A stretch of 64,000 bases of DNA, taken from Octopus vulgaris. Lineage: Eukaryota. Position numbers and translations under genes: made by a program. Below the pieces are notes generated by a model. The model was not told where the DNA came from, did not search any database, and saw only the letters and a list, made by a program, of their open reading frames with translations. The stretch lies in assembly GCA_951406725.2 (NCBI GenBank), contig OX597817.1, positions 127,472,001-127,536,000 on the forward strand, in the 5' to 3' direction. Shown piece after piece: positions 2,403-63,363 of the stretch (positions are counted from its first letter, which is position 1; each line of letters begins with the position of its first letter).

Positions 2403-3204
2403 AACATGTTATTCAGGGACATGCTGTATTGCAACAGCTATTAAGATGCACTCGACAAAAGGTTGGCTGAACGATTACATGTGGTTGCAGGGTCTGTGTA
2501 GCACCATAGTAAACTGAAAGCAAACTTCTAAGATACATATGCTTAGTTGTATGCGTGCGTGCACGTGTACGTACCATATTTCATTGTCTCTGTTTGTATT
2601 TGAAGCACACACAAACTACTCTTGTGCATTATCGCCTTTCATTTTTCCGTATATTCATGTGAATACGTGAACATTTTTGCTATTGAATGTTAATGTGTTT
2701 TCAGTGTTCCAATTTTCTAAGCGACAATTATCAGATTATAACGTCCAAGTCGTATAAATTATGACTTCCATTAAAAATCTAGAAACCCATAGAATAAAAG
2801 CGGAAGAAAAAAAAAGGAAAGGAAAATAAAATATGCAACAATTTCGGAGTTCTCACAAAATAAAAATCAATGTCAAACTATAATTACGTGCGAGATGGGG
2901 GAATAAGTAATTTAAGAAAGGAAAGTGGTATGTAAAGTTTTCTTCTGTAGAGGCAAAGCACGGATTATTTTTGTAGTGCACCATAGGTATACTCAGTTAA
3001 TGTGGGCCCCAATTTAACGACAGTTCAACATTTGTAACATGTCAATAGCCCTATTCATATCATAGTGCGTCGGTTTAAAAGGATCATGAGAACATCTGAG
3101 AAGAAATTTAGTGAATTCGTTCGTCATGTTTTGTTCATTGTGTTTTTATTTTGTTTTTTTGGGGGCGGGGTTTGCAGATTAAATAATGATTTTATTTATT
3201 TAGG

Positions 3205-3680
3205 AGTATCGGCGTAGTACGAATTGGTGCTGTATTGTGGAAAGTTTGCTCCCCAACTACATGGTTCCGCCTTAAGCAAGTGCCTTCTACTAGCTCAACA
3301 ATCGATCTGTGAGTGGACGTAGTTGACGAAAACTGACAGAACCCATCGTATGCACACAAACACACACACACACATATATGTGTGTGTGTGTATATATATA
3401 CAAAGAGAAAGAAGATATTGATATTTATGTATGTAAATATGTATGTATGCATATATGTATGGGCGTGTGTATATGTATGAGTGTATTTCTGTTCATCTTT
3501 GTCCTCCATCATCACTTCATAACTGGTGTTGGATTCTTTACATACCCGTAAAGACATTGACAGAATAAATGCCAGGTTTTAACACTTGGCAATGCGATGG
3601 CTTCGTTTGCCTAAAACCCTACAAGATGGTGCACCAAGATGGTTGCTGTCTAAAGAGTGAAAAAGTAAAGGCAAAGATGT
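3205..3680 (+). mobile_element. Decayed copy of the microsatellite-containing tRNA SINE
   Basis: Degenerate matches (CATGGTTCC, GCAAGTGCCTTCTACTA, ACAGAATAAATGCC) to the copies at 17716 and 28838. Confidence 0.5.
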
Positions 3681-3789
3681 TTTGTCTCATCTGACTCTTC
3701 CACTTTTTCACCATCACTATCATCATTACTATCATCATCATAATGATTATCATCATAATCATGAATAAAGTCCTTTCTTTTCTAGCTAC

Positions 3790-4450
3790 CTTGAGCTAGG
3801 CTTTACATTCCATTTCACCATCACATGCATAGAACTCGCACCTCTTAGATGGTAGATCTAACATGGCACTCAGTTTAAAACCAAGACATACTCGACATCT
3901 ATTTCGTTGACATTTGCATCCAGTTCCTTCGTCCTGCGTTGTTAATAAAGAAATTTCTTTGCGAATATTACGTCGGAGGTCAGCCAAGCCAATCTCTGCA
4001 ATATGAGTTTCAGCTGAGCCAATATATGCAGTATCGGGAACCATTAGATTCATTCTCTAAACTGAGCCAATCATTGTGGTCATGGTATCAGCTGAACTAT
4101 AATATCTGTGTCCCAAAATCACATGAAAAGTATAGAGTCACAGCATCGACTACATGAGTCTCTACTTTTTGAGCATCAGCAAAGCCAAAACTCTGCCGTA
4201 GAAGCAATCATCAAGCGCACTCGTAACAATCAGGGTAATAACTGAGAGCAATTGCAACAGGAGCATCAACTGCATCAAACCCTGCAGTTAAGAAAATTCC
4301 TGAGCCCTAACCCTACACTCAGAATATCAACTGAACTAGATATGAACTGACTCAATCTCTAGACTATTCTCCGCAGTATGAGCAGGACAAGACTACAAAC
4401 GTCATGGAAGTCACACCCTGCTCTCTTGATTATCTGTATGGAAAGTATTA
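3790..4450 (-). mobile_element. Highly decayed LINE (possibly RTE) 3' fragment
   Basis: Minus-strand translation loosely resembles an RTE C-terminus (..RRNIRKEISLL..). Many stops. Confidence 0.3.
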
Positions 4451-5359
4451 CAGTTGCCATTTCCATTTGCATTAAAAGCATGCTAAGAAATTTATTCAGA
4501 GACACGTTGTACTAAAATAGCGCTGCAGTTATTCTCTTTCTCGCTAGTTTTATTCAATCTATTAATCAAAAGTTCTGCTTCTCTTCTATTTTTTTCACTT
4601 CCGATTTGCTTCTTTTGTTTTTGGATTTTTGGTTTTAGTGTTTTATATATATTTTCAGCAGAAACATTCAATTATATCTCATGAAGTATCATAGACAAAA
4701 AGTTGTAAAATATCTCTATTCTTTCAACGTGGCTTCGTGTTTACAACCAACAGAGAAAAAATGATTTTCATACAAAAAAAAAAAAATTACCCGCTTTTTT
4801 CTTTTGTTATCTGCATTTGTTGCTCACCATTTAGCATAGTTAAAAATATTTTCTGCATAATAATGTGTTAAATGTTTAGACTACGAATACCACTTGAGAG
4901 AAAAGTGCTCAAATAATCATATATGAGCAAATAATTATGCTTAATATTATATGATGCGATTGGTTGAGTTGGACATGAACGAATTACATTATTCAGTTTA
5001 TCTAATTTTTTTTCTACTTTTCGTTAAGCTGGCCAAACGAGTACAGTTTAGTTCTATTCGTAGCTATTAATGTCCTTTCATATATCCAAAATAGATAAAC
5101 GTCTTACAAGAACATGTAGAGATATACAGACGAGTTAAAATATCCGAACATGGACCAGAGACGTTAGACACCGTACTATGAATTATTTCATCATTACACA
5201 AGTAAGAAAAAGAAATATTTTTTCTAATATAGATATAAGGACTGAAATTTCTGGGGAAGGGGGAAGGGTCTCGTCGATTACATCGAACTGTGCACGATTG
5301 ATACTTCTCAAAAGGGAGAAACGGAAACTCAACTTTGGAAGAATTTGAATTTAGGGCAC

Positions 5360-6133
5360 ATAAAGGCCTCCTGCCACAAAAGAGTGATTAAGTTGGGAAA
5401 CCTACGACTCTCACCTCATTCTGCTCTTATGTACTCTTCTCCAGCTCTGCTGACACTTACGATTGATGCCTGAGAAGTCCAGAAGGAACGAACCTAGCTA
5501 TATAAACTTTCTTCGTATACTTCTGAACGAAACATTTGGTTTCTTTTAACTCTTCTGTTTGTATTGTCCAGCAATTCTTGTAGCACCATTAGAATATTTT
5601 ATCTTTAAGTCCTAGAAGCTGATCCGTATCATTAAATTCAAACCCTTCTGAAAGAATACACTAGATCTGCCTTTTGGTACTGGTCGTCTTGGAGATAAGT
5701 AGATCTCGTATCCACTGAAAATGAGCATAAAAGCTTACGGATCGAAAACTCTACACTAGCTGATGTCCACCACTTCTATATCTAGAAGTCTGACGTCAGT
5801 GATCAGGTGGTTCTACTTCCATGACAAATACAGACCACGTGTGATCACAGTACTTGTTCTTGCGATAGCTATGTTCGACAAGACTGACCACTTACCTTAT
5901 TTCAATGGAAGGAAATGTATTCCATACTTCCGGATATTTGTCTTAATAGGTGCTTCTGCAAGCAGTTCTTCATAAAGTATTTTATTAATAATCCTTTGGA
6001 GATCTTCTATTCCTTTGGGATATTTTGTTTACAGGTTATTATATGTTTCTTGGCTCATTTTGTATGATTCTTGGTAATTCATTCAGTCTATTTGTTAGAG
6101 TTTATAATTGATGAGGTATTTCGGTTTGAGAAT

Positions 6134-6228
<95 letters not shown>

Positions 6229-7630
6229 GCGTTCATTGTGTTGTTTTCGTTTATTGTGACTTTTGTAATGTTTTGTGGTGTTTCTAGAGGTGGATATGTT
6301 TGTGGTTGTGTAGGTTTTGGAGGTGTGTGTGATTGTCAAATTATGTGTAGCTTTATCTCATCTGTTCATTTTTGTATGACGTAGTGTATTAATATATTCT
6401 AGTTTCTGTCTTCCCCTTGACAAGCATCCATTCTGTCGAGTCGTTCAAACTTGTTTCTTCTCAAAATGAGTTTTCGCTGTAAGAGAAATCTGTGGTAAGA
6501 AAAGAGATATATCTGCAAAATTGAGTATGTTGTATTTATGTTTGAAATTTGGTTGACTGGTGTGGGTAGGGCTCTTCTGGGTTGTGTTGCAGGATAAATT
6601 TCTTCCCAGGTAATGGAATTAGTGTTTGCTTCTGATGTTGAATGTGATTTTTGTTGTTCTGTTTGGTACTGCTATTGCTGGTATTGTTGTTGCTGCTCTT
6701 GCTTCTGTCGTTAGGGGGAATGCTACTACTTTTGTTGCCGGTGTTGCTGTTATGATGGAGTCATCAGCTGCAGATAGGGGTATTCCCATTTTTTTTTTTG
6801 TTTGTCATATGGACAGAAACCTCTTAAATCTTTGCGTCCTCACATATATAGCAACTCGGTCTTCTGCCTCAACTATTACGAAATGCTAAAAACTATTTTG
6901 TGGGGCTGAACAAATCAAGAATCACTTATATGCGTTCTTGATCATTTTGGATTAATAGTACCATTTCTGTGCCTGACCAAATTTTTTTCTCAAGTTTATG
7001 GAATTTCAGAATACTTGTTTCATTTTCGATATCATATATTTCGGGCTCCACAAAGAAGAGGGTATCTATTTTTGTGGTGCCTCGCTTACTTTTATTTCTA
7101 CCGCTCTCCGGCCGGATTAGTAGTATAGTAGTTTATTTGAATTAGAAGCAGCTTGTCACTTTTAAGCGTTGTTATTGAAATGTTCTTCACTTTTTCTCCG
7201 GTTTGAATTCTTACCTCCACTGTTTCAAACCTTCCCCGAACTACACAGGTTCTTACGTCCCTGACTGGTTTAAGCTGAACCAGAGTTGCTCGCTTGAAAT
7301 CATCACAGTTTCAATTCATCACATTTGTATATTATAGTTTTTCTATGAATTTCCTGTTGAATCTCAAGCTGTGTTCAAGTGTACTGATTTCCACTTTTGG
7401 TGAGATGAACTTTTGTATTTCAAAGTCCCTCTATGAAATGCAAATGTTTATCTCAAAGAGGTGGTCTTTTACTTCTCATAAAAGAGACACTTCTCTATTT
7501 CTGCATACATTTGCAATCCTGTTTTCACTTTGTTCGCTAATATCGGTGTTTACTGCAATTATTGTATTGATGTTTGTGGTACTTGGTAGTTGTGGATGCC
7601 GTATTTGTTTCAACGTTCTCCATGCCACAG
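5360..7630 (-). mobile_element. Decayed ORF1/gag-like retroelement (CCHC knuckle), no RT seen
   Basis: Frameshifted minus-strand peptides VRTCVVRGRFETVEVRIQTGEKVKNISITTLKSDKLLLI and IVE-GRRPSCYICEDAK-LRGFCP (~6810-6880) parallel the protein at 16160-17400. Contains an internal (GT)n. Confidence 0.55.
6139..6225. repeat. (GT)n microsatellite
   Basis: Direct reading. Confidence 0.97.
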
Positions 7631-8174
7631 AGAACAAAAACTTGTGGGGAGACACAACAAAAGAAAAAAAACTATATTATTTAAATTTTGTACAAGTAAA
7701 CTTCTTTACATTAAACCTGTAGGTAATAGGTCTGTCTATCCCATTATGTGAACTGATAATTATAAGCAATATAAAACAGTGATTTGAATTATGAATACTA
7801 ACAACACTCTGTATGTCATTCGGAAAATGACAGTTCAAGTAATGTATTTTTTATAATTAATGTTTCATATATTTTGTATGTAAAATTGTCAGTGCAGATT
7901 TAAATTAGTCAACAATTCGTAATATTTTGAAATGACAACTTCTTGGAAGCAAAATCTTATATTTAATTATTAATGGAAGTCTATTTTGAATGGTACACGT
8001 TTAAAGCGAGTAGCTTTGCCATGGTCAAAATAAGAGTAAATGAACATACAATAGAGCTAACAAAATGAATAGAATGAACCGGTCTTTTGCTTATAGGTAT
8101 AACATATAGAAATAAAGTTGTATAAATTGTAAACTTAACTTCCGTTCTCGAAATATGCAGCTGTCAAGGGAGGC

Positions 8175-10590
8175 AACTTTCAAATGATCAGTACTGAATA
8201 TCTGACTATTGCTTTTGGTGAGTATTACAAAATACTTTGGATCCGTAAACGATCATATGGCCTACCTTCTTATAATCGAAAAGGCACTTCAATACAGAAG
8301 TAGTGTTTCTATAGATTTTGGGACAATCGTCGTACATTGTGCAATATAAGTAAAATGGCTATATTTAACTTTTTATTTGTCTCTGAGCAAGGCCTGCACA
8401 ACTTTTTGTTCTTATATTCTCCTTACCTAATCTATCAATTATTTTGTCCATCCCTGCATCTTTTCTACCCACACCCAAAGGAAAACGCAAAGGCTACTTT
8501 GGTATAGTACATAGTGTTTATTATCGATATATAACGTCAATTCTATGTATTAAAATCTGTGTAGAGACGAATATTGAATGCAACATGTTATCGATAGTAT
8601 ATAACTAAGGTATATAACTGTCAAGAATCTAATTGACATGAACTTAGAAGAGTTAAGAGATGAATTACGCAAAATTTGAAATGTAATTGAAATAACTTCC
8701 AGAGAAATGATAAATTATCTCCCCTGCTTCTCTGAAAGTCACTGAAAATTGTTTGCGCGTCAACCTCATTTTTTAACTTCAGCTCAGGGAGAAATTTTCA
8801 TCAGTTGATCTTTGTTTTGAATGAGTCATTCACTATATCAAACCAGAAATTGCTATTCTATTCCCATGTGACCGCGAAGTTAGCCGATAAATAACATACT
8901 ACTCTATTCCTATTCCTATTTCTATGGGATGGTAAAGCTAGTATGTACGAAGGTGGGTTAGAAAGTAATGCATTTTTTAATTGCATTGCAATTTGATTAA
9001 TCCTCGCAAACAGGATAGTATCAATCAAAAAATCATTCAAATAAAAATTGCATTACTTTATGATTGATTCTCGTAAATTAGTTTTAAGCTTCAATGAAAA
9101 TTATGTGATAGCGACTTGCTTAACAAGGCCGCATGAAAAAGCATTCTGAAAAGAAGTTAGAAGATTCACTCCACCTTTTCTTTCATACCAGCGAAAATAA
9201 TGTACAAACGGAATAGTCTAAAAAATATCGTAAAATTAGTTCATTTCTTTTGACTAATCTTCAGAACTGCTTTAATCGGGGAAATGACACTGGTGGCATT
9301 TTTTCCCAACGAAATGCACCGTTTGAAGTAACTTTCAAATGATCAGTACTGCCTATCTGACTATTGTTTTTTGGTGAGTAGTACAAAATACTTTGGATCC
9401 GATGAACGATGTCATATGGCCTACCTTCTTATAATCGAAAAGGAACTTTACTACAGAAGTAGTGTTTCTACAGTTATGGGACAATCGTTGTACATTGGTT
9501 GTGCAATATACGTAAAATGATTATATTTAACAAAATCCAAGCAGGTTAGGATGAACATTGACGCAAAAAGTATCTATTGAAGCAACTTCTATCCTTTAGG
9601 TAAATTCAAAGCGCCTCATTCCACGAAGATTATCCATCTGGATTTGCCTACAGGGTATATTCGTGAGTCGATGTAGACAGTATTCAAATGGTGAAGAAAT
9701 GTCTTGCTGACAGTTTTAGAACCACTAAAACTTTTCTGAATACACTAAACTTCGCTTCTACAAATTTCTGTTTTGTAATAAAAACAGTGCAACTGTAAGA
9801 ACATCACCTGAGTATTGAATCACAACCGGAGACTTTCTGCTGTATTATTTCGTTACTGGTTCACATTACGTCATTACTGATCAGGCTTGCTTAATCCCGT
9901 AGGTACTGGCTCGAACGATGTTTCTGCTAAACCACGTCGGATCATCACGTTCAGTATTAGAGTAATTTTCTGATTCAACATACGGGATGATATATTTCGT
10001 TTTGCTTTATCGACGCGCAATGTCAATTCTATATAATAAAAAGTGCATAGATGTAGAACGTAACAAGTAAACGACATACTCTGCAAAAGAGACTTACGAA
10101 GCCTGTAGATAATGTAACGGCATGATAATTCCCTTCAAGTTGGTTTAACGCTTATGGAAGTAGAGTAACATAATGAAAACTGCTAAATTAATGCAATTGT
10201 CTAAAATGACACTCAGTTGAGAAGAGGGAAATGCAATAACATTTAATCATAATAAAGTTATAGGCTTATAAATGGAATAGTTTTTAAAATAGTCCATTAG
10301 TTCTGGTAAGTAACCATGTGTTACATCGTGGACATCGCAAAACAAACTTTCAAAACAATGTTTCAGGGAATACATAGGATGAAATTAATTGTCATTGTAT
10401 AAGTAATTGTTAGTCAGCTATTATAAAGGTGCTCTAAGTGTCCTATTCTTGAGTAATAATTATTCTGGAAAAGGACACTGGAAAAGGACACTGGTGGCAT
10501 TTTTTTCCCAACGAAATGCACCGTTTGAAGTAACTTTCAAATGATCAGTACTGCCTATCTGACTATTGTTTTTTGGTGAGTAGTACAAAA
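8175..10590 (+). repeat. Three dispersed direct repeats (~8175-8369, 9286-9530, 10487-10590)
   Basis: All share AACTTTCAAATGATCAGTACTG..TATCTGACTATTG..TTTTGGTGAGTA.TACAAAA. Copies 1 and 2 extend together for ~195 bp. Copies 2 and 3 share the upstream GACACTGGTGGCATTTTTT. Confidence 0.9.
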
Positions 10591-12101
10591 AATATTAACG
10601 ACGCAGAAGGAAAAATAACAATCTCTTCAAAATAGAATTTTTCATATCTTTTCCAATATATATTTTATTAAAACACCCAGGTAAATAACTGGTATTTAAT
10701 ATGTTGACCCTGGAAAAAAAAAAGTAAAAAGTCGAAGCACTGTATATTTTCATCTTTCTAAGATTCATTAAGCAGGCGTTCTGATAATTGTCACCCGTAA
10801 ACAAATTGAGAAGCTATATATAAAGCGATAGCGAAATAATTTTCTTTTTTAAATTAATGTACCCAATAATGTGACTACGAGTATGCATTTCTATTGTAGG
10901 TAGATGATTAAGATATTTTGAGGACCTTTCGAGAAAATAATAGAATTTAATCTACGCTGATTGAAAGATAATTAATTTGCAATAGTAATTATAGTTAGCG
11001 AGAAAATGAAGAAAATGTATTCTCATACCCATTTTTTTTATTGTCATTATATCTTTTTTTTTTCTGTGATTTTTTCCACGATTTCATTTCAGTCTACTTA
11101 AATAAGCAAAACAAAAGGCATCATAATTTACAGCTATATATTTCGATGGTAGCACATGGTTCCGGGTTCAGTACTCCTGCATGGCACCTTGTGCAAGTGT
11201 ATTCTATTATATTCCCTCGTCCACTGGCGACCAAAGCGTTGTGAATGGATTTGGTGGACGGAAACTGAAAAAAAGGTTATTTTTGATAAGTCAATGTAGA
11301 AGCCGCTTCGTAGTCGCAGTACTTAGAAGAAATAGCAGTTCAATTATTTCGTATTACACCCCGCAACCTTAAAATAGTCAAAAAGATATACTGAAGAATG
11401 AAATCCTAAATTATTTTTGGATATAAATAGCATCATTTACAGGAAATGTCACCTTGGATAATGCAATCTCAGATGCATTACGTCTGGGAAAATAATTAAA
11501 GAAAAGATGACTGCGATTCGAATGACTTTCGTCATAGGCTTTTCTCGTTCGGTGCTGACTGGTATACAATAGTACGAACGACAAAAAAAGTTTAAATAAT
11601 TCTATAGTACATCAACCTCACCTCATTTGACATTTAACTACATTTCCTCATATTCAATTAATTTCGATGAACGCTATATATATTAGATTCTACCTTCAAG
11701 GAATACATATATATTTCTCTTCTCGCGAGCGTTTTAGTACTTCACTGTGAAGACAGTATTGATATTAAGGAGGAAGTTTGATCTGAAGACCAAATTTTAA
11801 TGAACTTTCGATACTTCATCGTGTTATTGCAAGCAATAAATTTTGTCGACAGAAATAATAATTTTCTTACGCAAAGTTATTCATAAATAAACAATAATGT
11901 TTAAACGCATATAAATTTATATTCGGCGTGTAACATTACAATACGACAATAGTAAATGTTCTTTAATTTCATTTCGAACATGATAATTTGACTTCTAATG
12001 TTCTTATTTTATTTGTTTGCTACTAATTCAATTTTACGTGAAGATATCTTCCTTATGTTATTGATCATATATCAAATGGAAAATCTAATCGAATCTACGC
12101 T

Positions 12102-21336: not shown

Positions 21337-21364
<28 letters not shown>

Positions 21365-21372
<8 letters not shown>

Positions 21373-23543
21373 ATGTTACATTACTCGGTAGTCAAGATAA
21401 AACTCTGAGTTTCAGATGCCGAAGTGGAAATCCACAACACCATCTCTTCGGTTATCTGGCTATTTGAAAACGTTATGAAAAAATACCGTTAAAAATGAAG
21501 GGAAATTACTCTGTTATAACTCTGCTTTGCCTGCGTACTTATACATCGCTCGCATTTTTCGTCATAAAAATTATATAAAAATACATAAAAATATATAAAA
21601 TTATATAAAAATATATAAACTCTTCTTGGGACATAACACAGAAAGCATGTTCTATCCGTTTTCTTTAGGGGACCAAAAACGTAACAGAAATTTAGTCACA
21701 TGTGGGCATGATCCGAAAAGCTCTGTCCTTGTATTTAGACATGTGGTAGGGTCTAAGCTGCTTTTCCAGATAAGCCATCTCTCCATGTCGCATAAACCGC
21801 ACCTTCCGCTGCCGTTAGTATAGGGCTTACATCTGGCCAAAATCTTCCATTGTATGTTATAATCGACACCTTTATCTCTTAAAGACCAAATATGATTGGA
21901 TAATTGTGTCGCTTTTCTTTTGTTCCAGTGCCTAAAGCTCAAAGTGTGGTTATTGAACCTGACCTTGAAATTACCCTCTGTCAGGCCCACGTATTTCTTC
22001 GTCGAAACGGTGTCTTTAGTGGTTATAGAGTTTACGGTAGCTTCATATATGATGGTCTTGGACATGCAAGCTCCATTTAGCGGGCACAATTCTTTATTCC
22101 TGCATGAACAGCTGTTTTCTTCTTGTGTTTTTTGTATGTTATGATTGATTATGTTTTTAAAATTGGTAGTTGAACTAAAACTAATTTTTAAATTGTGTCT
22201 ATTGAAGAGTTTCCTATAAGCATGGTTAACTGGAAAATGTCTATCTATCAGTGCTAGGAAATATTTACCTATATTGAAGGCCACTTCGGGTGAGTAAGGG
22301 GGCGTAAACCAGATGACCTTCCTATTTCTATTATTCCTTTTCCTTATTGTTGGGCTGGTGATAGGGGTATATTTTATTTTTTCGCTAAAACCACTATCTT
22401 TTAAAGCTTTATTATAAACTGGGGCAACGCTATTGAAGATGTCCTCATTAGATGAGAGGCTAGAAATGCTCTTACTAATATTTTAAACTAAATTTTTGAA
22501 TACTATAGGGGGATGGCATGAACCTACATTAATATAACTTAGTCTATCATTGGGCTTCCTATAAGGCTTATAAATATTATTATTAAGATCTAAGGAAACG
22601 TCTAAGAAATTGACAACCGTCAGGTTAGTGTCTATAGTTATACTAAGTCCGAAGTGTTTCATTAACTGGATAATATCCTTCCTAAAACGATCTTGTGCTG
22701 GTCCATTTGTATTAGCTGTTAAGGCGAGGGCATCATCTTTGTAGATGGCGAAATGTACGTTAGGGAATGTCTTACCGAAGGTATCTAGGAGAAAGAGTCC
22801 AATTAGATCACAGATGCCTGCCCCATCATATGAACCCATGCTCACATCGAAAGCGCCCTCCGTGTCGGTGTTTTTTACCCACTTTGCATTCTCACTGAAA
22901 AGTAATGTCTTTCTAGCATGGAAGATTATATCCTTATCATTGGTACTAATTTCTATGAAGTCACTAGCGAAGATTAGGGCTTTATCTAGCAGTTCTTTAG
23001 AGATAGAGGCATAAAAATCAACAATATCGAATTGTGTAAACCTCGCTTTTTTCTTATTCTTAATAGCTTTAAACCAGTCTACGACTTCTATACTATTGGA
23101 CCATTGCACTAGCCTAGTATCGGTCTTAATTTTCGTATTTATTTTATCTAAAATTTCTTTGCTAATAATCCCTAGTTCTGACTTGGCTGGGTTGATAAGC
23201 CTACATTTAGGGTTGGAAAGGAAGTTTTCTTTGTGGTCTTTAATAGTAATAAAGGCCTCTTTTTGGGGGAGGGTTTCTATTTTTTTATCTAATTTAAGTT
23301 TAGCGGCGATGACGCTAGCTTCTTTATTAATTTCGTTATATGTCTGTGCCCTAGCCTTAGTATAATTATTAATGATGCTGTTGTGTAAGAGTTGTGTGTA
23401 TTTGCTGTTATCTACCAGGTATAAGTTCTTGGTTTTATCCGAAAAAAGTGCAGGTCCGCTTCGAAATCTTCCAAGCCTTTAATCCTAGGAGGGAATTTTT
23501 GGATTTTATCCGATAGCAAATGTTTTCCTTGGTGTTCGCTTCT
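21365..23543 (-). mobile_element. Penelope-like element (Naiad-type), 5'-truncated, left palindrome arm
   Basis: SDKTKNLY, IKDHKENF, CRLINPAKSELG, FDIVDFY, MGSYDGA, YKDD, FLDV, then CSC-X5-CPL, IIY...YVG and CGLC. One in-frame TAA at 22483-22485. Confidence 0.93.
21391..21460 (-). ncRNA. Type I hammerhead ribozyme (left arm)
   Basis: Reverse complement of 25631-25700. Confidence 0.65.
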
Positions 23544-23552
23544 TTTTGACAC

Positions 23553-25792
23553 AGAAGCGAACACCAAGGAACACATTTGCTATCGGATAAAATCCAAAAA
23601 TTCCCTCCTAGGATTAAAGGCTTGGAAGATTTCGAAGCGGACCTGCACTTTTTTCGGATAAAACCAAGAACTTATACCTGGTAGATAACAGCAAATACAC
23701 ACAACTCTTACACAACAGCATCATTAATAATTATACTAAGGCTAGGGCACAGACATATAACGAAATTAATAAAGAAGCTAGCGTCATCGCCGCTAAACTT
23801 AAATTAGATAAAAAAATAGAAACCTCCCCAAAAAGAGGCCTTTATTACTATTAAAGACCACAAAGAAAACTTCCTTTCCAACCCTAAATGTAGGCTTATC
23901 AACCCAGCCAAGTCAGAACTAGGGATTATTAGCAAAGAAATTTTAGATAAAATAAATACGAAAATTAAGACCGATACTAGGCTAGTGCAATGGTCCAATA
24001 GTATAGAAGTCGTAGACTGGTTTAAAGCTATTAAGAATAAGAAAAAAGCGAGGTTTACACAATTCGATATTGATTTTTATGCCTCTATCTCTAAAGAACT
24101 GCTAGATAAAGCCCTAATCTTCGCTAGTGACTTCATAGAAATTAGTACCAATGATAAGGATATAATCTTCCATGCTAGAAAGACATTACTTTTCAGTGAG
24201 AATGCAAAGTGGGTAAAAAACACCGACACGGAGGGCGCTTTCGATGTGAGCATGGGTTCATATGATGGGGCAGGCATCTGTGATCTAATTGGACTCTTTC
24301 TCCTAGATACCTTCGGTAAGACATTCCCTAACGTACATTTCGCCATCTACAAAGATGATGCCCTCGCCTTAACAGCTAATACAAATGGACCAGCACAAGA
24401 TCGTTTTAGGAAGGATATTATCCAGTTAATGAAACACTTCGGACTTAGTATAACTATAGACACTAACCTGACGGTTGTCAATTTCTTAGACGTTTCCTTA
24501 GATCTTAATAATAATATTTATAAGCCTTATAGGAAGCCCAATGATAGACTAAGTTATATTAATGTAGGTTCATGCCATCCCCCTATAGTATTCAAAAATT
24601 TAGTTTAAAATATTAGTAAGAGCATTTCTAGCCTCTCATCTAATGAGGACATCTTCAATAGCGTTGCCCCAGTTTATAATAAAGCTTTAAAAGATAGTGG
24701 TTTTAGCGAAAAAATAAAATATACCCCTATCACCAGCCCAACAATAAGGAAAAGGAATAATAGAAATAGGAAGGTCATCTGGTTTACGCCCCCTTACTCA
24801 CCCGAAGTGGCCTTCAATATAGGTAAATATTTCCTAGCACTGATAGATAGACATTTTCCAGTTAACCATGCTTATAGGAAACTCTTCAATAGACACAATT
24901 TAAAAATTAGTTTTAGTTCAACTACCAATTTTAAAAACATAATCAATCATAACATACAAAAAACACAAGAAGAAAACAGCTGTTCATGCAGGAATAAAGA
25001 ATTGTGCCCGCTAAATGGAGCTTGCATGTCCAAGACCATCATATATGAAGCTACCGTAAACTCTATAACCACTAAAGACACCGTTTCGACGAAGAAATAC
25101 GTGGGCCTGACAGAGGGTAATTTCAAGGTCAGGTTCAATAACCACACTTTGAGCTTTAGGCACTGGAACAAAAGAAAAGCGACACAATTATCCAATCATA
25201 TTTGGTCTTTAAGAGATAAAGGTGTCGATTATAACATACAATGGAAGATTTTGGCCAGATGTAAGCCCTATACTAACGGCAGCGGAAGGTGCGGTTTATG
25301 CGACATGGAGAGATGGCTTATCTGGAAAAGCAGCTTAGACCCTACCACATGTCTAAATACAAGGACAGAGCTTTTCGGATCATGCCCACATGTGACTAAA
25401 TTTCTGTTACGTTTTTGGTCCCCTAAAGAAAACGGATAGAACATGCTTTCTGTGTTAAGTCCCAAGAAGATTTTATATATTTTTATATATTTTTATATAT
25501 TTTTATGTATTTTTATATAATGTTTATGACGAAAAATGCGAGCGATGTATAAGTACGCAGGCAAAGCAGAGTTATAACAGAGTAATTTCCCTTCATTTTT
25601 AACGGTATTTTTTCATAACGTTTTCAAATAGCCAGATAACCGAAGAGATGGTGTTGTGGATTTCCACTTCGGCATCTGAAACTCAGAGTTTTATCTTGAC
25701 TACCGAGTAATGTAACATATTGTATAGATAAATTTCCTCTATTTACATAATATTGAGGTCTCTTTCTTTCTTTTGTTATCTTACCGTTTTAT

Positions 25793-25795
<3 letters not shown>
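23553..25795 (+). mobile_element. Penelope-like element (Naiad-type), 5'-truncated, right palindrome arm with ~70-bp longer 3' tail
   Basis: Same RT and GIY-YIG motifs (ORFs 23985-24608 and 24807-25439 are one frame broken by TAA at 24606-24608). Ends in (TA)n. Confidence 0.93.
25631..25700 (+). ncRNA. Type I hammerhead ribozyme in the PLE 3' pLTR
   Basis: Stem I AGATAA/TTATCT; core CCGAAGA (U4C variant); stem II GATG...CATC with inner GTGGA/TCCAC; GAAA; palindromic stem III ACTC-A-GAGT; GUU cleavage triplet. Confidence 0.65.
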
Positions 25796-25860
<65 letters not shown>

Positions 25861-42837: not shown

Positions 42838-43592
42838 GCTTTGCACAGCTTCTAACGCTGGAGATATACTACAGTGTCAGCTGTTCAATACCAGTGAACT
42901 AAGGTAAAAACCTCTTATTTTTCGAGCACCTTCCGGAGTATTGGAGCGATTCCAAGCAGTGCTGTTTTCTGCAAGTGCTCCACCCTTATTGCAGCCCCTA
43001 TTTGTTCCACGTACTTCTCGAGATTTTTGCTCACTGTTCCCAGGGTTCCGACAATTATTGGTACTATTGCTACCTTTTTCATCGACCACGGCTGCTTAAC
43101 TTCCCAAGCTAACCTGTCATATCTCTCGACTTTTCTTTCTACCTTATCGCATACCTTGTTGTCAGCTGGGCATGCTATATCTATGATCCAGCATAGTTTG
43201 TTTTCTTTCTCAATTAACACTATGTCTGGTTTCCTATTCTCAATTTCATGGTCGCACTGAATCATAAAATCCCATAGGATCTTTGCATTTCTATTTCCGA
43301 CAATGCCTTCAGGTTTGTGGTCGTACCAATTTTTGCTCTTGTTGCAAAGTGTCCAATGGACAAGCCTGGCTATATTGTCGTGGCGTCTCTTATATTCCTT
43401 CTAGGCTAGTGCTGTACATTGGCTGGTAATATGAAATACGGTTTCACCGTTTTGTCCACAGATTCTGCACTTATCACTTTCTTCTGTGTTGTCCATTCTG
43501 TATTTTATGTAGTTTGCTCTTAGTGCTTGCTCTTGGGGAACACAGATTAGAACCTCCGTTTCCGGTTTTAAATCACTTTTAGTCATCCACAT
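42838..43592 (-). mobile_element. Dong/R4-like LINE, 3' part (zinc knuckle + RLE)
   Basis: CRICGQNGETVFHITSQC, RKPDIVL..CWIIDIACP, KVERYDRL and LQKTALLG. Confidence 0.9.
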
Positions 43593-43615
43593 TAGTGGGT
43601 ATCATTGACCACAGT

Positions 43616-45790
43616 AATCGTCTAGTACTTTATTATATTTTCATCTCTCTGGGATCGATGGAATGAAGTACACAACAAGAACTGAGGTAGATGGTGTCGA
43701 CTATTCACTCCTCTCGAAATTGTTGACTTTGTGCTTAAATTACAAAGTGTCCCTCGTAGTGTGAAGACTTTTGTTCTTCGACCTGTCTTCGAAACATGTT
43801 TTATTCGAACATTACTCAATGATATTTACTTTAAAGTAATTGTAAAAAGAACTAAAATTTCCTAAGGTGGGACTGTCCTCAATACCTGGTAAGAAAGAAT
43901 ATAACAGAATATAACAGAAAGAATATTTGTCTCACAAACTTTTAAAACTTCTTTTGCACACAACTTATTTTCACATCCGAAATGATTTCCAGACATAATT
44001 ATACCTCACGACAAAACACCAAAGTGACGAAAATTCAACAAAATGAAAAATACAAAATGAAAAGAATTGATAGAGTAGTGAATAATTATTAGAAGAAAAT
44101 AACTCCAAATACTCAAACAAATACTTTGGAAGGCACCGACAATAACTAAAATAGCAGCAACAGTAGCAAATATAACTCTTAAACCAATTCCAGAAATAGC
44201 TGTTCGTTTATAGAGCAGATTTTTGAAAACAAAACTTCCTTCAGTATAAAATGAATAGATGGAATTTTTAGCATATCAGAATTACAAGAAAACATGTACA
44301 CAAGGGAATTTTGTAAAACCCAACAGAATTTTTTTATCAAAGAGATAATCCAAAAATGGGCAAAGATTAAAATTATATCTCCGCTCACGAAAAAGTGGAA
44401 ACGGATTGAATTTTATCTCACATCATGAAATACAAGCCCACCAGGATATATCGAAAAGAAGAATTATCTCAATTAAGAAGGCGAAAAAGCAAAAATTTTG
44501 ACAACATTTTAAAACTAAAATAATTGCCAAAATTTGGGCTGAAATTGTAAACTGTGGTCAATGATACCCACTAATGTGGATGACTAAAAGTGATTTAAAA
44601 CCGGAAACGGAGGTTCTAATCTGTGTTCCCCAAGAGCAAGCACTAAGAACAAACTACATGAAATACAGAATGGACAACACAGAAGAAAGTGATAAGTGCA
44701 GAATCTGTGGACAACGGTGAAACCGTATTTCATATTACCAGCTAATGTACAGCACTAGCCTAGAAGGAATATAAGAGACGCCACGACATTTCGTGTAATA
44801 GTACATGGATCATAGAAATACAAGTCACCTATAAGAAACAGTGAAGATGACATAGACTTATGTCTAGTAGTGAGTTATCTTTGTGTCATTATAAAAGAGA
44901 GTAATAAAAGCAGGCATAACTGATAAACTACCTATTAGCAGAGATGGCGTCACGAACAACGTACATGTCTTAATGACTCCAGAGGTTCGCAGACCCATAC
45001 TGGTAACCGAAACAAAGTGTATGAGATTCATGGTACAAGGTAGAAAGCCCAAGTGTATTAGTTAATTAGTTAAAGTAAAATATACATTAGAGCTGAAGAA
45101 CGGAAACATTAAGCAAAAACAAAAGAAAATAAAAATAATGAATTTCAACCGCAACAAAAATAACAAACCAGTTTTAGAGCACCATTAGCCGAAACTCTGG
45201 GGAAAGCAAAGGAATTATCTTTAAGTCTAATATCACAAATAATTCGTTTCTTACCTATACAAACCTACAGTAACATATTTTCATCTTGAAGTGAGGAAGC
45301 AATAAATAAGAGAAAAAATTACAGACAAAACAGGCATAAAATAAAAGAACAAAAACATAGGACTACAATGTCTTCAAAAGGACAACGAAATATTTTCTTT
45401 AGAATATAATAAAGAAAATGTAGAAGACAAAGATGAACTAAGATCACTGTTCTTTGAAAATCAAACAAACAGTTAATAGACAAAATTATGCATCTATTGT
45501 GTTGCAAGCTCTATCAAGAAATTAAAATGACTGTTTATAAACACCATGCAAAAAAATAGACCACAAGTAAATACAAATTAAGACATCATATGGAACTTTC
45601 GAAAGAATGCCTTCAAGATGTCGGTATTGAAAAGAAATGTCTCAAAAAAATGTTTTGCAGTGCATTCAGTCACATTCGAACATTATTTGAGAAACGGTCA
45701 AGTGAACGGGGTCGCAGGGTGCTCAGTTAACTTATTCAAACAGCTTCGATGACTTAAATATCGTCTTTTAACTTTTGTGGTAATTTTCAT
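43616..45790 (+). mobile_element. Decayed ORF1-like retroelement, interrupted at 44551-44788
   Basis: Peptides KIKIISPLTKKWKRIEFY (~44360) and MVQGRKPKC (~45030) parallel IKFISRGVKYATVWLLF and MLEGRPPKC of the 16-kb element. Boundaries uncertain. Confidence 0.4.
44551..44788 (+). repeat. Inverted duplicate of 43376-43615
   Basis: Near-identical reverse complement, including the shared TAG in ALA*KEYKRRHD and ~23 bp beyond the recognisable LINE sequence. Confidence 0.92.
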
Positions 45791-55758: not shown

Positions 55759-55811
<53 letters not shown>

Positions 55812-55818
<7 letters not shown>

Positions 55819-56254
55819 AATTGGAGATAAAACCACTATTATACAACTCAAACAGTGATAGACATAAACCAAAACATAAATAACAAATAATATATATTTT
55901 TATAAAACATATAACTTATAACTAGGTCTCAAAAAGTTATAAAAATGAATAATCAATATATAATATAATATATAATATATACTTATTACAATATGTATTA
56001 TATTATATTATATATACAATATATAATATATACTTATTATATTATATATTGATGATTCATTTTTATACTTTTTGAATTTAGTTATCAGTTATGTTTTATA
56101 AAAATACATATTATTTGTTATTTATGTTTTGGTTTATGTCTATCACTGTTTGAGTTGTATGATAGTGGTTTTATCTCTAATTTATATTAAATACTGTGAA
56201 ATTTGATTTAATACTAAATTGAAATTATCCCTGTAAGTTTGGAGTTATACTCCC
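55812..56254. repeat. AT-rich palindrome (55812-56189) with a 65-bp one-sided tail; probable PLE end
   Basis: GAGATAAAACCACTAT.ATACAACTCAAACAGTGATAGACATAAACCAAAAC and its reverse complement. Sits between (TA)n and (TTA)n. Confidence 0.8.
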
Positions 56255-60559: not shown

Positions 60560-61800
60560 AATAACTGATGATCTTGCATATCTTGCTCGTCAATGTCAAC
60601 TTCATCATTTTGATATGAAACTAGATGTCAGAAATCAAATCAGTTAAGTTTCCACACTGATTAGACACAGTTAAACACAAGCTGACCAGAACAACTGGCA
60701 GAGCTGACAATGTTTTCAAGCTGTGGCAGCTTATACACAATGTATTCCAGTTCAAAGCTTGCTTCAACCATTGGGTTTGGAACAAACACTGGGTTGTCAA
60801 GTCCCATTTTTCGAGCAACCTTTTGCAGGAAGACATCTTCAAACTGAAATTCCTTTTCATTGTATACAATAACCCGACCAAGTAATACACAAATTGTGAT
60901 TTCCCAGAACATTTGACAACCACAAAGTCACGTTCATTGATATCAGTGTCACTGCCCTCGTCCGAATTGACATCGTACTCAACTTCTGAATTATCATCTG
61001 CCTCATTGGAACTAGGAATTTTGGAGCTTAGAGATCAAGCTTTTTAGATTTCAAGTTAGATTTCAAGAAACATCTCTTTGGCTTCTTGGTAGATGCCTTC
61101 TGTTTGTGGTTTTCAGATAAGGCTGCAAGCTCTTGGCATTCTGGGATGTCAGTCAGAATCTTTGTGCTGTCATTTTTGCAACCGGCTTTCTTTTCACGCT
61201 TTTGCTTTCGGAAATCGGTGAACATCAGACGGTGATACTTATGGCCGAGGCATGACATTCTGCAGATTGGGTGAATCAGGATTGCCGGAGGTGAATGGTT
61301 TAATGTCATCTGCTCGTTGTAGATAAACAACATCAGTTGACAAGGCAGCAACTGGAGTCTCTCTGGTTGCATGGCATTTTCAGGGGTGGCATTCACCTTG
61401 GTGCCATCAGCAGCAGCGTCACCTTGCTCACAATCAGTTAGAGAAGCAGGGGCAAAGCCTGTTTCACTAAATAAGTTCTGTTGAATGAATGGATATCTGT
61501 CACTTCAAATAATGTTGGATGGCGTCGCGAGCATCATTTTGGCTTGGTTCACCAGAGTTGGAATTTCGAAGATTGCCTTAAAGTAGCCCATATATTGTTC
61601 GATCGAGAGGCTGAAGGTTATGTGAAGTGTTGGGTGGTATTATCAGCTGGAAAACACCATGACACCTTGCAGTGTTAACAGCATTGACAGATATATATGG
61701 GTGTTATGGTTGTCTGAACTTCCTGAGATTTCTTCATATACAAATATAAACCATCCTATACATCATTTATGTGAAAGGTTATGTCAAGCGTTGGCACCCA
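60560..61800 (-). mobile_element. pogo/Tigger-like DDE transposase remnant
   Basis: Frameshifted PLDRTICGLLKA and FEVTDIHSFNR (cf. QPLD..VY.PLK and F..TGI.PFNR), then KILTDIPE, an acidic stretch and a DFVVVK C-terminal region. Confidence 0.7.
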
Positions 61801-63100: not shown

Positions 63101-63363
63101 GCGACGCCATCCAACATTATTTGAAGTGACATATATCCATTCATTCAACAGAACTTCTTTAGTGAAACAGGCTTTGCTCCTGCTTCCCCGACTGATTGTG
63201 AACAAGGTGACGCTGCTGCAGATGGCACCAAGGTGAATCCCACCCCTGAAAATTCCAGGCAACCAGATGAGACTTTAGTTGCTGCCTTGTCAACTGATGT
63301 TGTCTATCCACAACGAGCAGATGACGTTAAACCATTCACCTCCAGCAATCCTGATTCACCCAA
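63101..63363 (+). repeat. Inverted, diverged copy of pogo segment 61267-61528
   Basis: Reverse-complement match with multiple substitutions. Confidence 0.9.

Follow-up and report, generated by a model that had tools for sequence, protein, structure and literature searches.

In the canonical insertion unit of Penelope-like elements (PLEs), as laid out in the legend to Fig. 2 of PMC8557442, an inverted, 5'-truncated copy lies at the 5' end of the element and a tail is present on one side only. Penelope-13_HM, a member of the Hydra clade, carries an inverted copy of 966 nt (PMC8557442 File S1). Head-to-head inverted copies were described by Arkhipova et al. in 2013, where the palindromes at the junctions are read as self-priming of an antisense RNA template, not of cDNA (PMC3846280). 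How PLEs make their inverted copies is still treated as open in both PMC8557442 and PMC11167929. Here we analyse a palindrome of two head-to-head PLE copies, with a total mirror-image length of 4.4 kb, in the genome of Octopus vulgaris (assembly GCA_951406725.2, contig OX597817.1). The analysed stretch, hereafter the window, comprises 64,000 nucleotides (positions 127,472,001 to 127,536,000, forward strand), and all coordinates refer to it.

The locus shares with the canonical unit, as exemplified by Penelope-13_HM and Adineta Pen2a, the head-to-head arrangement, the inverted copy at the 5' end, the one-sided tail and a palindrome at the junction. In contrast to the inverted copies of 181–966 nt in the published examples consulted, which are much shorter than their partners, the one found here measures 2.18 kb and at the 5' end is only 9 nt shorter than its partner. 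Its tail also differs, with 69 nt against the published 30–40 nt. A literature search that left most subscription journals outside its reach found no paper on a near-symmetric, whole-element PLE palindrome. The preliminary description of this DNA had stated that PLE insertions often carry an inverted truncated copy, which is a published hallmark (PMC8557442, PMC3846280), and had singled out the mirroring of nearly the whole reverse transcriptase–endonuclease (RT–EN) cassette. The length and symmetry are indeed unusual, but the novelty was overstated, the head-to-head arrangement having been on record since 2013 (PMC3846280). The locus is thus an unusually long and symmetric example of an already known PLE arrangement.

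Similar products are reported for other retroelements. In the snap-back described for R2 proteins (PMC11371274) and in L1 foldback or twin priming (PMC11702581), the 3' end of the cDNA primes itself before the 5' junction is formed and antisense sequence is left beside the target, as in the origin proposed below for the palindrome. These examples, however, concern other classes of retroelement in tumour-model or engineered systems. In L1 twin priming the inverted parts do not overlap, and the insert is not duplicated (PMC11702581). The sections of both papers that deal with self-priming do not describe a copy of nearly the whole cDNA (PMC11371274, PMC11702581).

A head-to-head palindrome with shared defects

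An inverted-repeat search of the window returned three abutting segments that pair 21358–23543 with 23553–25733. Global alignment of the left arm (21365–23543, reverse complement) with the right arm (23553–25726) gave 2179 columns with five substitutions and five gap columns, an identity of 99.4% over 2.2 kb that is far beyond chance. The repeat search and self-alignment thus agree with the preliminary description on the 4.4-kb palindrome, the coordinates of its arms, the 9-nt loop and the (TA)n outside both arms. The palindrome is a real feature of the assembly, and it probably exists in the animal as well. Its features are collected in Table 1.

Table 1 Features of the palindrome and its immediate surroundings (window coordinates)
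Feature	Position	Strand	Basis or remark
(TA)15, left remnant of the microsatellite target	21339–21368		Tandem-repeat inspection
Left arm, 5'-truncated Hydra-clade PLE copy without tail	21365–23543	-	Repeat search and global alignment
Hammerhead-like motif, left arm	21388–21461	-	Covariance model 13.2 bits, E 0.63 (weak)
Broken RT–EN frame, left arm	21652–23543	-	Frameshift, ~100-bp deletion, premature TAA
9-nt spacer TTTTGACAC	23544–23552	+	Coding sequence native to the element, sharing the frame of the right arm (..FDTEANTK..)
Right arm, 5'-truncated Hydra-clade PLE copy	23553–25726	+	Three extra small deletions relative to left arm and family
Junction of ~100-bp internal deletion with 2-nt microhomology, both arms	23645–23646; left arm about 23450–23451	+ (23645–23646)	~34 aa missing relative to homologs; loose ends in X3 and X5
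Premature TAA, both arms	24606–24608 (right); 22483–22485 (left)	+ (right); - (left)	A different base in 97–99.9% of family depth
CxCX5C linker and C-terminal GIY-YIG-like endonuclease with CxxC and CxH, to stop of the open reading frame	24981–25439	+
AT-rich 10-mer repeat, 3' untranslated region	25471–25519; left arm 21564–21619	+ (25471–25519)	Holds or adjoins four of the five arm substitutions
Hammerhead-like motif, right arm	25630–25703	+	Core CCGAAGA ... TGAAAC, predicted cut after 25690
PLE tail, 69 nt, right arm only	25727–25795	+	Its end is the usual 3' end of the family
(TA)33, right remnant of the microsatellite target	25795–25860		Tandem-repeat inspection

The 3' end of the left arm runs into (TA)n via TATA microhomology, while the right arm continues into the tail, which had been put at about 70 bp and measures 69 nt. 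Within (TA)n, a target-site duplication is indistinguishable from the target. The 5-kb flanks on either side have no inverted match to each other and share only a dispersed repeat in direct orientation, and the rest of the 64-kb window contains no further copies of the palindrome's element.

The family to which the arms belong is very abundant in independent sequencing runs. Part of the stretch is contained in 20 of the 24 listed runs, from nine studies. None of these 20 is recorded as RNA, which says nothing about expression; seven with a queried RNA label contain 0.36–0.40 of its words. Contigs were compared for four runs from four studies (X1, which may be the source sample, X2, X3 and X5) over 23544–25794, with 2833–11485 contigs per run, those of X1 and X2 being covered to about 80% and 76%. 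One X2 contig (record 9, depth 487) aligns from 23544 and continues for 39 nt beyond. The spacer therefore belongs to the element itself and simply extends the right arm by 9 nt relative to the left, and the identical 5' truncation point formerly ascribed to both arms does not hold.

The arms differ by five substitutions (left/right: 23524/23572, 21633/25458, 21620/25471, 21601/25490 and 21569/25522) and three indels. All bases missing at the indels are missing in the right arm, namely two single C near 23822–23825 and 3 bp at 24069, which turns DIVDFY into DIDFY. The difference list of the preliminary description (a 3-bp indel, two 1-bp homopolymer indels and a few substitutions) is thereby confirmed. 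The family has the left-arm state at all three indels, and judged by these contigs it is the right arm that is derived or in error there.

Against this small number of differences stand seven defects that both arms share and that most of the family depth lacks: five substitutions, of which one creates the premature stop, a 1-bp loss and a deletion of ~100 bp. The substitutions, found among the 40 variant rows listed out of 64, lie at 24606, 24623, 24725, 24806 and 25129; here the arms have identical bases, and 85–100% of the family depth in each of the four runs has another. Near 23595 both arms lack one base that is present in all X2 and X3 depth and in 88% of that of X5, and in X1 this extra base mostly appears as loose ends. 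The ~100 bp absent at 23645/6 from both arms are present in homologs and in family contigs. The premature TAA had already been noticed in both arms, but the list of common defects was incomplete, the 1-bp loss and the ~100-bp deletion having been overlooked. Because these seven shared defects are rare in the family, both arms likely derive from one template.

At three of the five shared-substitution sites the leftover 1–15% of family depth could reflect a minor subfamily. The leftover depth at 24725 (125.9 in X1, 51.2 in X2, 0 in X3 and 32.7 in X5) could hint at a two-armed allele in X1, but it comes without letters and was not used as evidence. An intron at the ~100-bp gap was considered and rejected, as the letters of the loose ends do not have GT/AG ends. 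We also rejected the reading of departures such as FYAS as decay, since an X3 loose end shows that the family carries FYAS. The insert cannot encode an intact protein; it may form a hairpin when single-stranded, or give 2.2 kb of double-stranded RNA if read through. The cruciform and the double-stranded RNA suggested in the preliminary description are thus possible from the sequence.

Affiliation with the Hydra clade

According to the clade descriptions in PMC8557442, Naiads combine an N-terminal EN with DKA, CCHH and a CxC domain and lack a canonical hammerhead, and the Hydra clade has a C-terminal EN, DKT, CxCX5C, CxxC/CxH, RWK, a hammerhead, (TA)n targets and a length below 3 kb (PMC8557442, Craig et al. 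2021). Translated with X at the stop, the left arm yields 594 residues, with the YxDD of the RT at residue 232 and the endonuclease motifs at residues 443–579, C-terminal to the RT. These motifs are CSCRNKELC at 443, CGLC at 546 and CPH at 577; no cysteine lies between the IIY and YVG core motifs, and CCHH is absent. The Pfam GIY-YIG match has an E of 0.016, below the curated cut-off.

The element thus has the single open reading frame of the Hydra clade, in which an RT is followed by a C-terminal GIY-YIG-like EN, and also its insertion into (TA)n and its length below 3 kb. DKT replaces DKG in SDKTKN, another feature of the clade. The Naiad linker CX2–5CxxC has no match in the element's protein, which has CxCX5C instead. 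The RWK region of the N-terminus was lost with the 5' truncation, and RxRW[KR] is present in 108 of the 241 proteins analysed. The Naiad-type label of the preliminary description is therefore not borne out: the EN is C-terminal, DKT stands in place of DKA and the CX2–5CxxC linker is missing. Because of its C-terminal endonuclease in particular, we assign the element to the Hydra clade of PLEs and not to the Naiads, on motifs and layout rather than on a tree.

Among 7997 candidates, 1275 homologs have the same layout, the best with 52% identity; a PDB sequence search with the element protein gave no matches. CRLINP occurs 11 times in the supplement of PMC8557442, and at least three of these places are Hydra entries. 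Among the members named in that supplement's consulted parts, Hydra-1_Obim is the nearest by eye, with the uncommon residues of FITIKDHK, ICDLIG and DDALA in common, an affinity that would hint at a cephalopod-like host. Compared by eye rather than by alignment, the element forms a family separate from the published Hydra members, no protein exceeding 52% identity among the best 120 of the 1275 matches. It differs from the clade in that this copy is broken and truncated. The (TA)n target, the inverted truncated copies and the tail are shared with Naiads, unlike the C-terminal EN, DKT and the weakly scoring hammerhead-like motif.

A hammerhead covariance model was built from 20 relatives, drawn from 30 loci with a pattern match (92% of cells paired; the rows of two loci, L070 and L079, are misaligned). 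It matches only two sites in the 64 kb, one in the 3' untranslated region of each arm and at the expected place, although the E of 0.63 is weak and the core CCGAAGA is a variant. The tgaa-actc-a-gagt-t part of the motif is identical to that of Penelope-3_HM as given in File S2 of PMC8557442, and the layout of the motif is also alike. An Rfam scan gave no hammerhead match; its other results, sub-threshold microRNA matches on the hairpin centre and (TA)n and one bacterial small RNA with E 4.3, were judged to be chance. Free folding fails to recover the hammerhead fold (z -1.77). In several opposite-strand joints of other family copies, one side falls at 25621–25634, just before the hammerhead motif, a site that probably marks the start of the pseudo-long terminal repeat.

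Both outer ends of the palindrome can be compared with ends of related copies. The end of the right arm's tail is the usual one, with 27–65 contigs per run continuing into (TA)n at 25790. The outer end of the left arm is TTGTAT, 36 nt beyond the predicted cut. A metagenome locus of a distant Hydra family (L014, 44% identity) has an inverted piece that, read by eye, also stops at TTGTAT, ~33 nt past the hammerhead cut, and a forward copy in which a 71-nt tail is followed by TA repeats. The left arm's outer end matches this geometry and so has the appearance of an end programmed in Hydra elements, tying the structure to integration.

Origin of the palindrome

One possible origin, which we tentatively favour at somewhat less than even confidence, is a single insertion in which one cDNA underwent fold-back and a second round of copying. 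In the proposed sequence of events, the protein of an intact family member would nick (TA)n, and the RNA of a slightly decayed copy would be reverse-transcribed from the tail end (25795). cDNA synthesis would halt near 23544, and the cDNA 3' end would pair with a few bases 9 nt behind and prime itself. The second strand would end at the tail-less 3' end of the element (25726) and join the other (TA)n end via TATA microhomology, and repair would fill in the opposite strand. The eight arm differences would be later changes or consensus errors.

Several observations support such a snap-back. The shared defects are what a single template predicts, and the native spacer, at 9 nt, has the geometry expected of a fold-back loop; for two independent stops, uniformly distributed, the chance of lying within 9 nt of each other is about 0.8%. 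Both outer ends coincide with ends of the element rather than with arbitrary points, the mirror stops at the element and leaves the flanks unmirrored, and opposite-strand joints are common in the family, with five strand-changing joints elsewhere in the element among the 15 joints listed out of 28. Trans-mobilisation by PLEs has been reported (PMC3846280). The fold-back of one cDNA, already put forward in the preliminary description, accordingly remains the leading mechanism, with its single template backed by the shared defects, but it had been stated with too much certainty and rivals stand.

A number of points weigh against snap-back. The strand-change joint at 23544/23553 is not among the 15 joints listed, out of 28, for the four runs, and neither X2 nor X3 has depth for the window's allele at 23595. 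The absence of the centre joint counts for little and neither confirms nor refutes the palindrome, as rare or hairpin variants are lost from contigs, and amplification across hairpin junctions may be poor (PMC5932611). The native stem that the fold-back requires is not readable in the available sequence: a search among shorter proteins found no native sequence upstream of the spacer (best match 64%, over part of the query), nor did the consulted parts of the PMC8557442 supplement. Along the element itself, short stems are frequent (96 sites of 4 bp and 21 of 5 bp in 2243 nt). By our own estimate, polymerase error alone seems unlikely to account for five shared substitutions in 2.2 kb, and a decayed donor moved in trans must therefore be assumed; none was found, the whole assembly lying outside the search. 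All five lie inside a 1391-bp block free of arm differences (chance 0.11), whose length has a p of 0.003–0.09 depending on how events are counted, and shared substitutions in such a block would also fit gene conversion. The right-arm deletions, in short repeats, resemble long-read consensus errors. Finally, the tail-less end is more directly explained by the two RT start sites seen in vitro (PMC11167929).

The last point belongs to an alternative in which both ends of the break are primed. The EN would cut both (TA)n strands, and the two ends would prime synthesis on RNA from a single decayed donor, one at the tail start site and the other at the site without a tail. Each cDNA would run off at the same RNA 5' end, and the two would be joined in head-to-head orientation after one of them had lost 9 nt. 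With a lizard PLE protein both strands are cleaved and extended, and the two sites at which it starts define the tail (PMC11167929). This scheme explains the one-arm tail best, together with the matching geometry of L014, and its single donor accounts for the shared defects as well. However, the in vitro evidence comes from the Poseidon clade and not from Hydra (PMC11167929), and two RNAs or passes with the same 5' end are needed, which meets the figure of about 0.8% for stops within 9 nt. Two RNAs from one rare defective donor, in a family of hundreds of copies, are also less likely than one cDNA. We consider priming from both ends unlikely, though a serious contender.

No dead donor would be needed for the stop, the frameshift and the deletion if the palindrome arose at the DNA level, either from a truncated copy that decayed and was then duplicated by replication fold-back through (TA)n or from an older pair homogenised by conversion between the arms. 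Fold-back inverted duplications and arm-to-arm conversion are known, and the window contains three other inverted duplications, none of which includes this element. The confinement of the shared substitutions to the single difference-free block (1391 bp; p 0.11) points the same way, but the shared defects at 23595 and 23645/6 lie outside it. There is also no reason for a fold-back to stop at the tail-less end, the same relative site as in L014, an objection that the TATA microhomology weakens without removing it. The instability of long palindromes with very short spacers counts against great age. On balance a DNA-level origin appears rather unlikely. It is still harder to credit an assembly artefact, in which a fold-back read or a misjoin of near-identical copies created or perfected the mirror, and we regard this as improbable. 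The missing centre joint among those listed agrees with it, as do the right-arm-only deletions, which fall in homopolymers or a triplet repeat where the family agrees with the left arm. Fold-back reads make up ~0.55–0.6% of nanopore genomic reads according to 10.1101/2025.07.15.664946, thousands of family contigs are available for a misjoin, and polishing could have made real arms more alike. But a fold-back read would mirror the tail and flank as well, whereas the mirror here ends tail-less, in its own (TA)n and beside an unrelated flank, and in a misjoin with a different copy the shared rare bases would not extend as far as 25129. An artefact would require two separate errors.

The rare defects common to both arms argue for one template and offer a genome-wide test that sets snap-back against two-ended priming. 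It is tempting to go further and to speculate that near-perfect kilobase palindromes recur in this Hydra family because cDNA snap-back is the normal second-strand route of PLEs, but we find this doubtful. If it were true, rare bases common to the arms would provide a genome-only test of PLE second-strand synthesis, and the inserts would be ready-made hairpin-RNA loci silencing their own family. Such palindromes are hard to detect in short-read contigs and hard to polish, which calls for caution; one locus of known architecture, without independent confirmation, is a useful example and not a new system.

Inverted structures in metagenome loci and elsewhere in the window

An inverted match of 28–218 nt is present in 15 of 79 metagenome loci. 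Kilobase arms occur in none of the 79, which is no test, since contigs have a median length of 2558 nt and 4.4 kb is reached in only 12 of the 79. Three loci of one family, and thus not independent (L014, L021 and L024), have a truncated forward copy whose 5' end carries an inverted 3' piece of 183–188 nt. Four loci (L014:790–3076, L021:169–2450, L024:2512–4800 and L020:3–2210) contain the same composite, in which the inverted 3' piece is joined to a forward copy with its truncation near residue 74. Their left flanks are of at least two kinds, which looks like re-mobilisation of the inverted unit itself. Near the junction of the L014-type composite lies an imperfect native hairpin, whose counterpart in the inverted copy comes closer to perfect pairing.

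At the 5' end of another Hydra element (L043:711–904), (TA)n is followed by an inverted piece of ~45 nt, a hammerhead-bearing segment and a forward copy of the piece; by its layout, this would be a short version of the head-to-head unit. In L028:1–4943 a Hydra element is repeated in full as a head-to-tail tandem (2538 bp, 99.6%).

The window itself has further inverted structures. Directly after (TA)29 at 55761–55818 lies an AT-rich palindrome of 386 bp (55808–56193), 88% self-complementary and with a TA-rich centre. It has no match to the PLE protein and is possibly a miniature inverted-repeat transposable element or a foldback element. A 240-bp inverted duplication (43376–43615 and 44551–44788, 98%) consists of a non-LTR (long terminal repeat) retrotransposon fragment, which we take to be of the RTE type, around 935 unrelated bp. 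Both of its arms have the same ~23 nt at their start, and the structure looks like an inversion with duplicated breakpoints. Another inverted duplication, of 263 bp (61267–61528 and 63101–63363, 93%), has its two copies ~1.6 kb apart.

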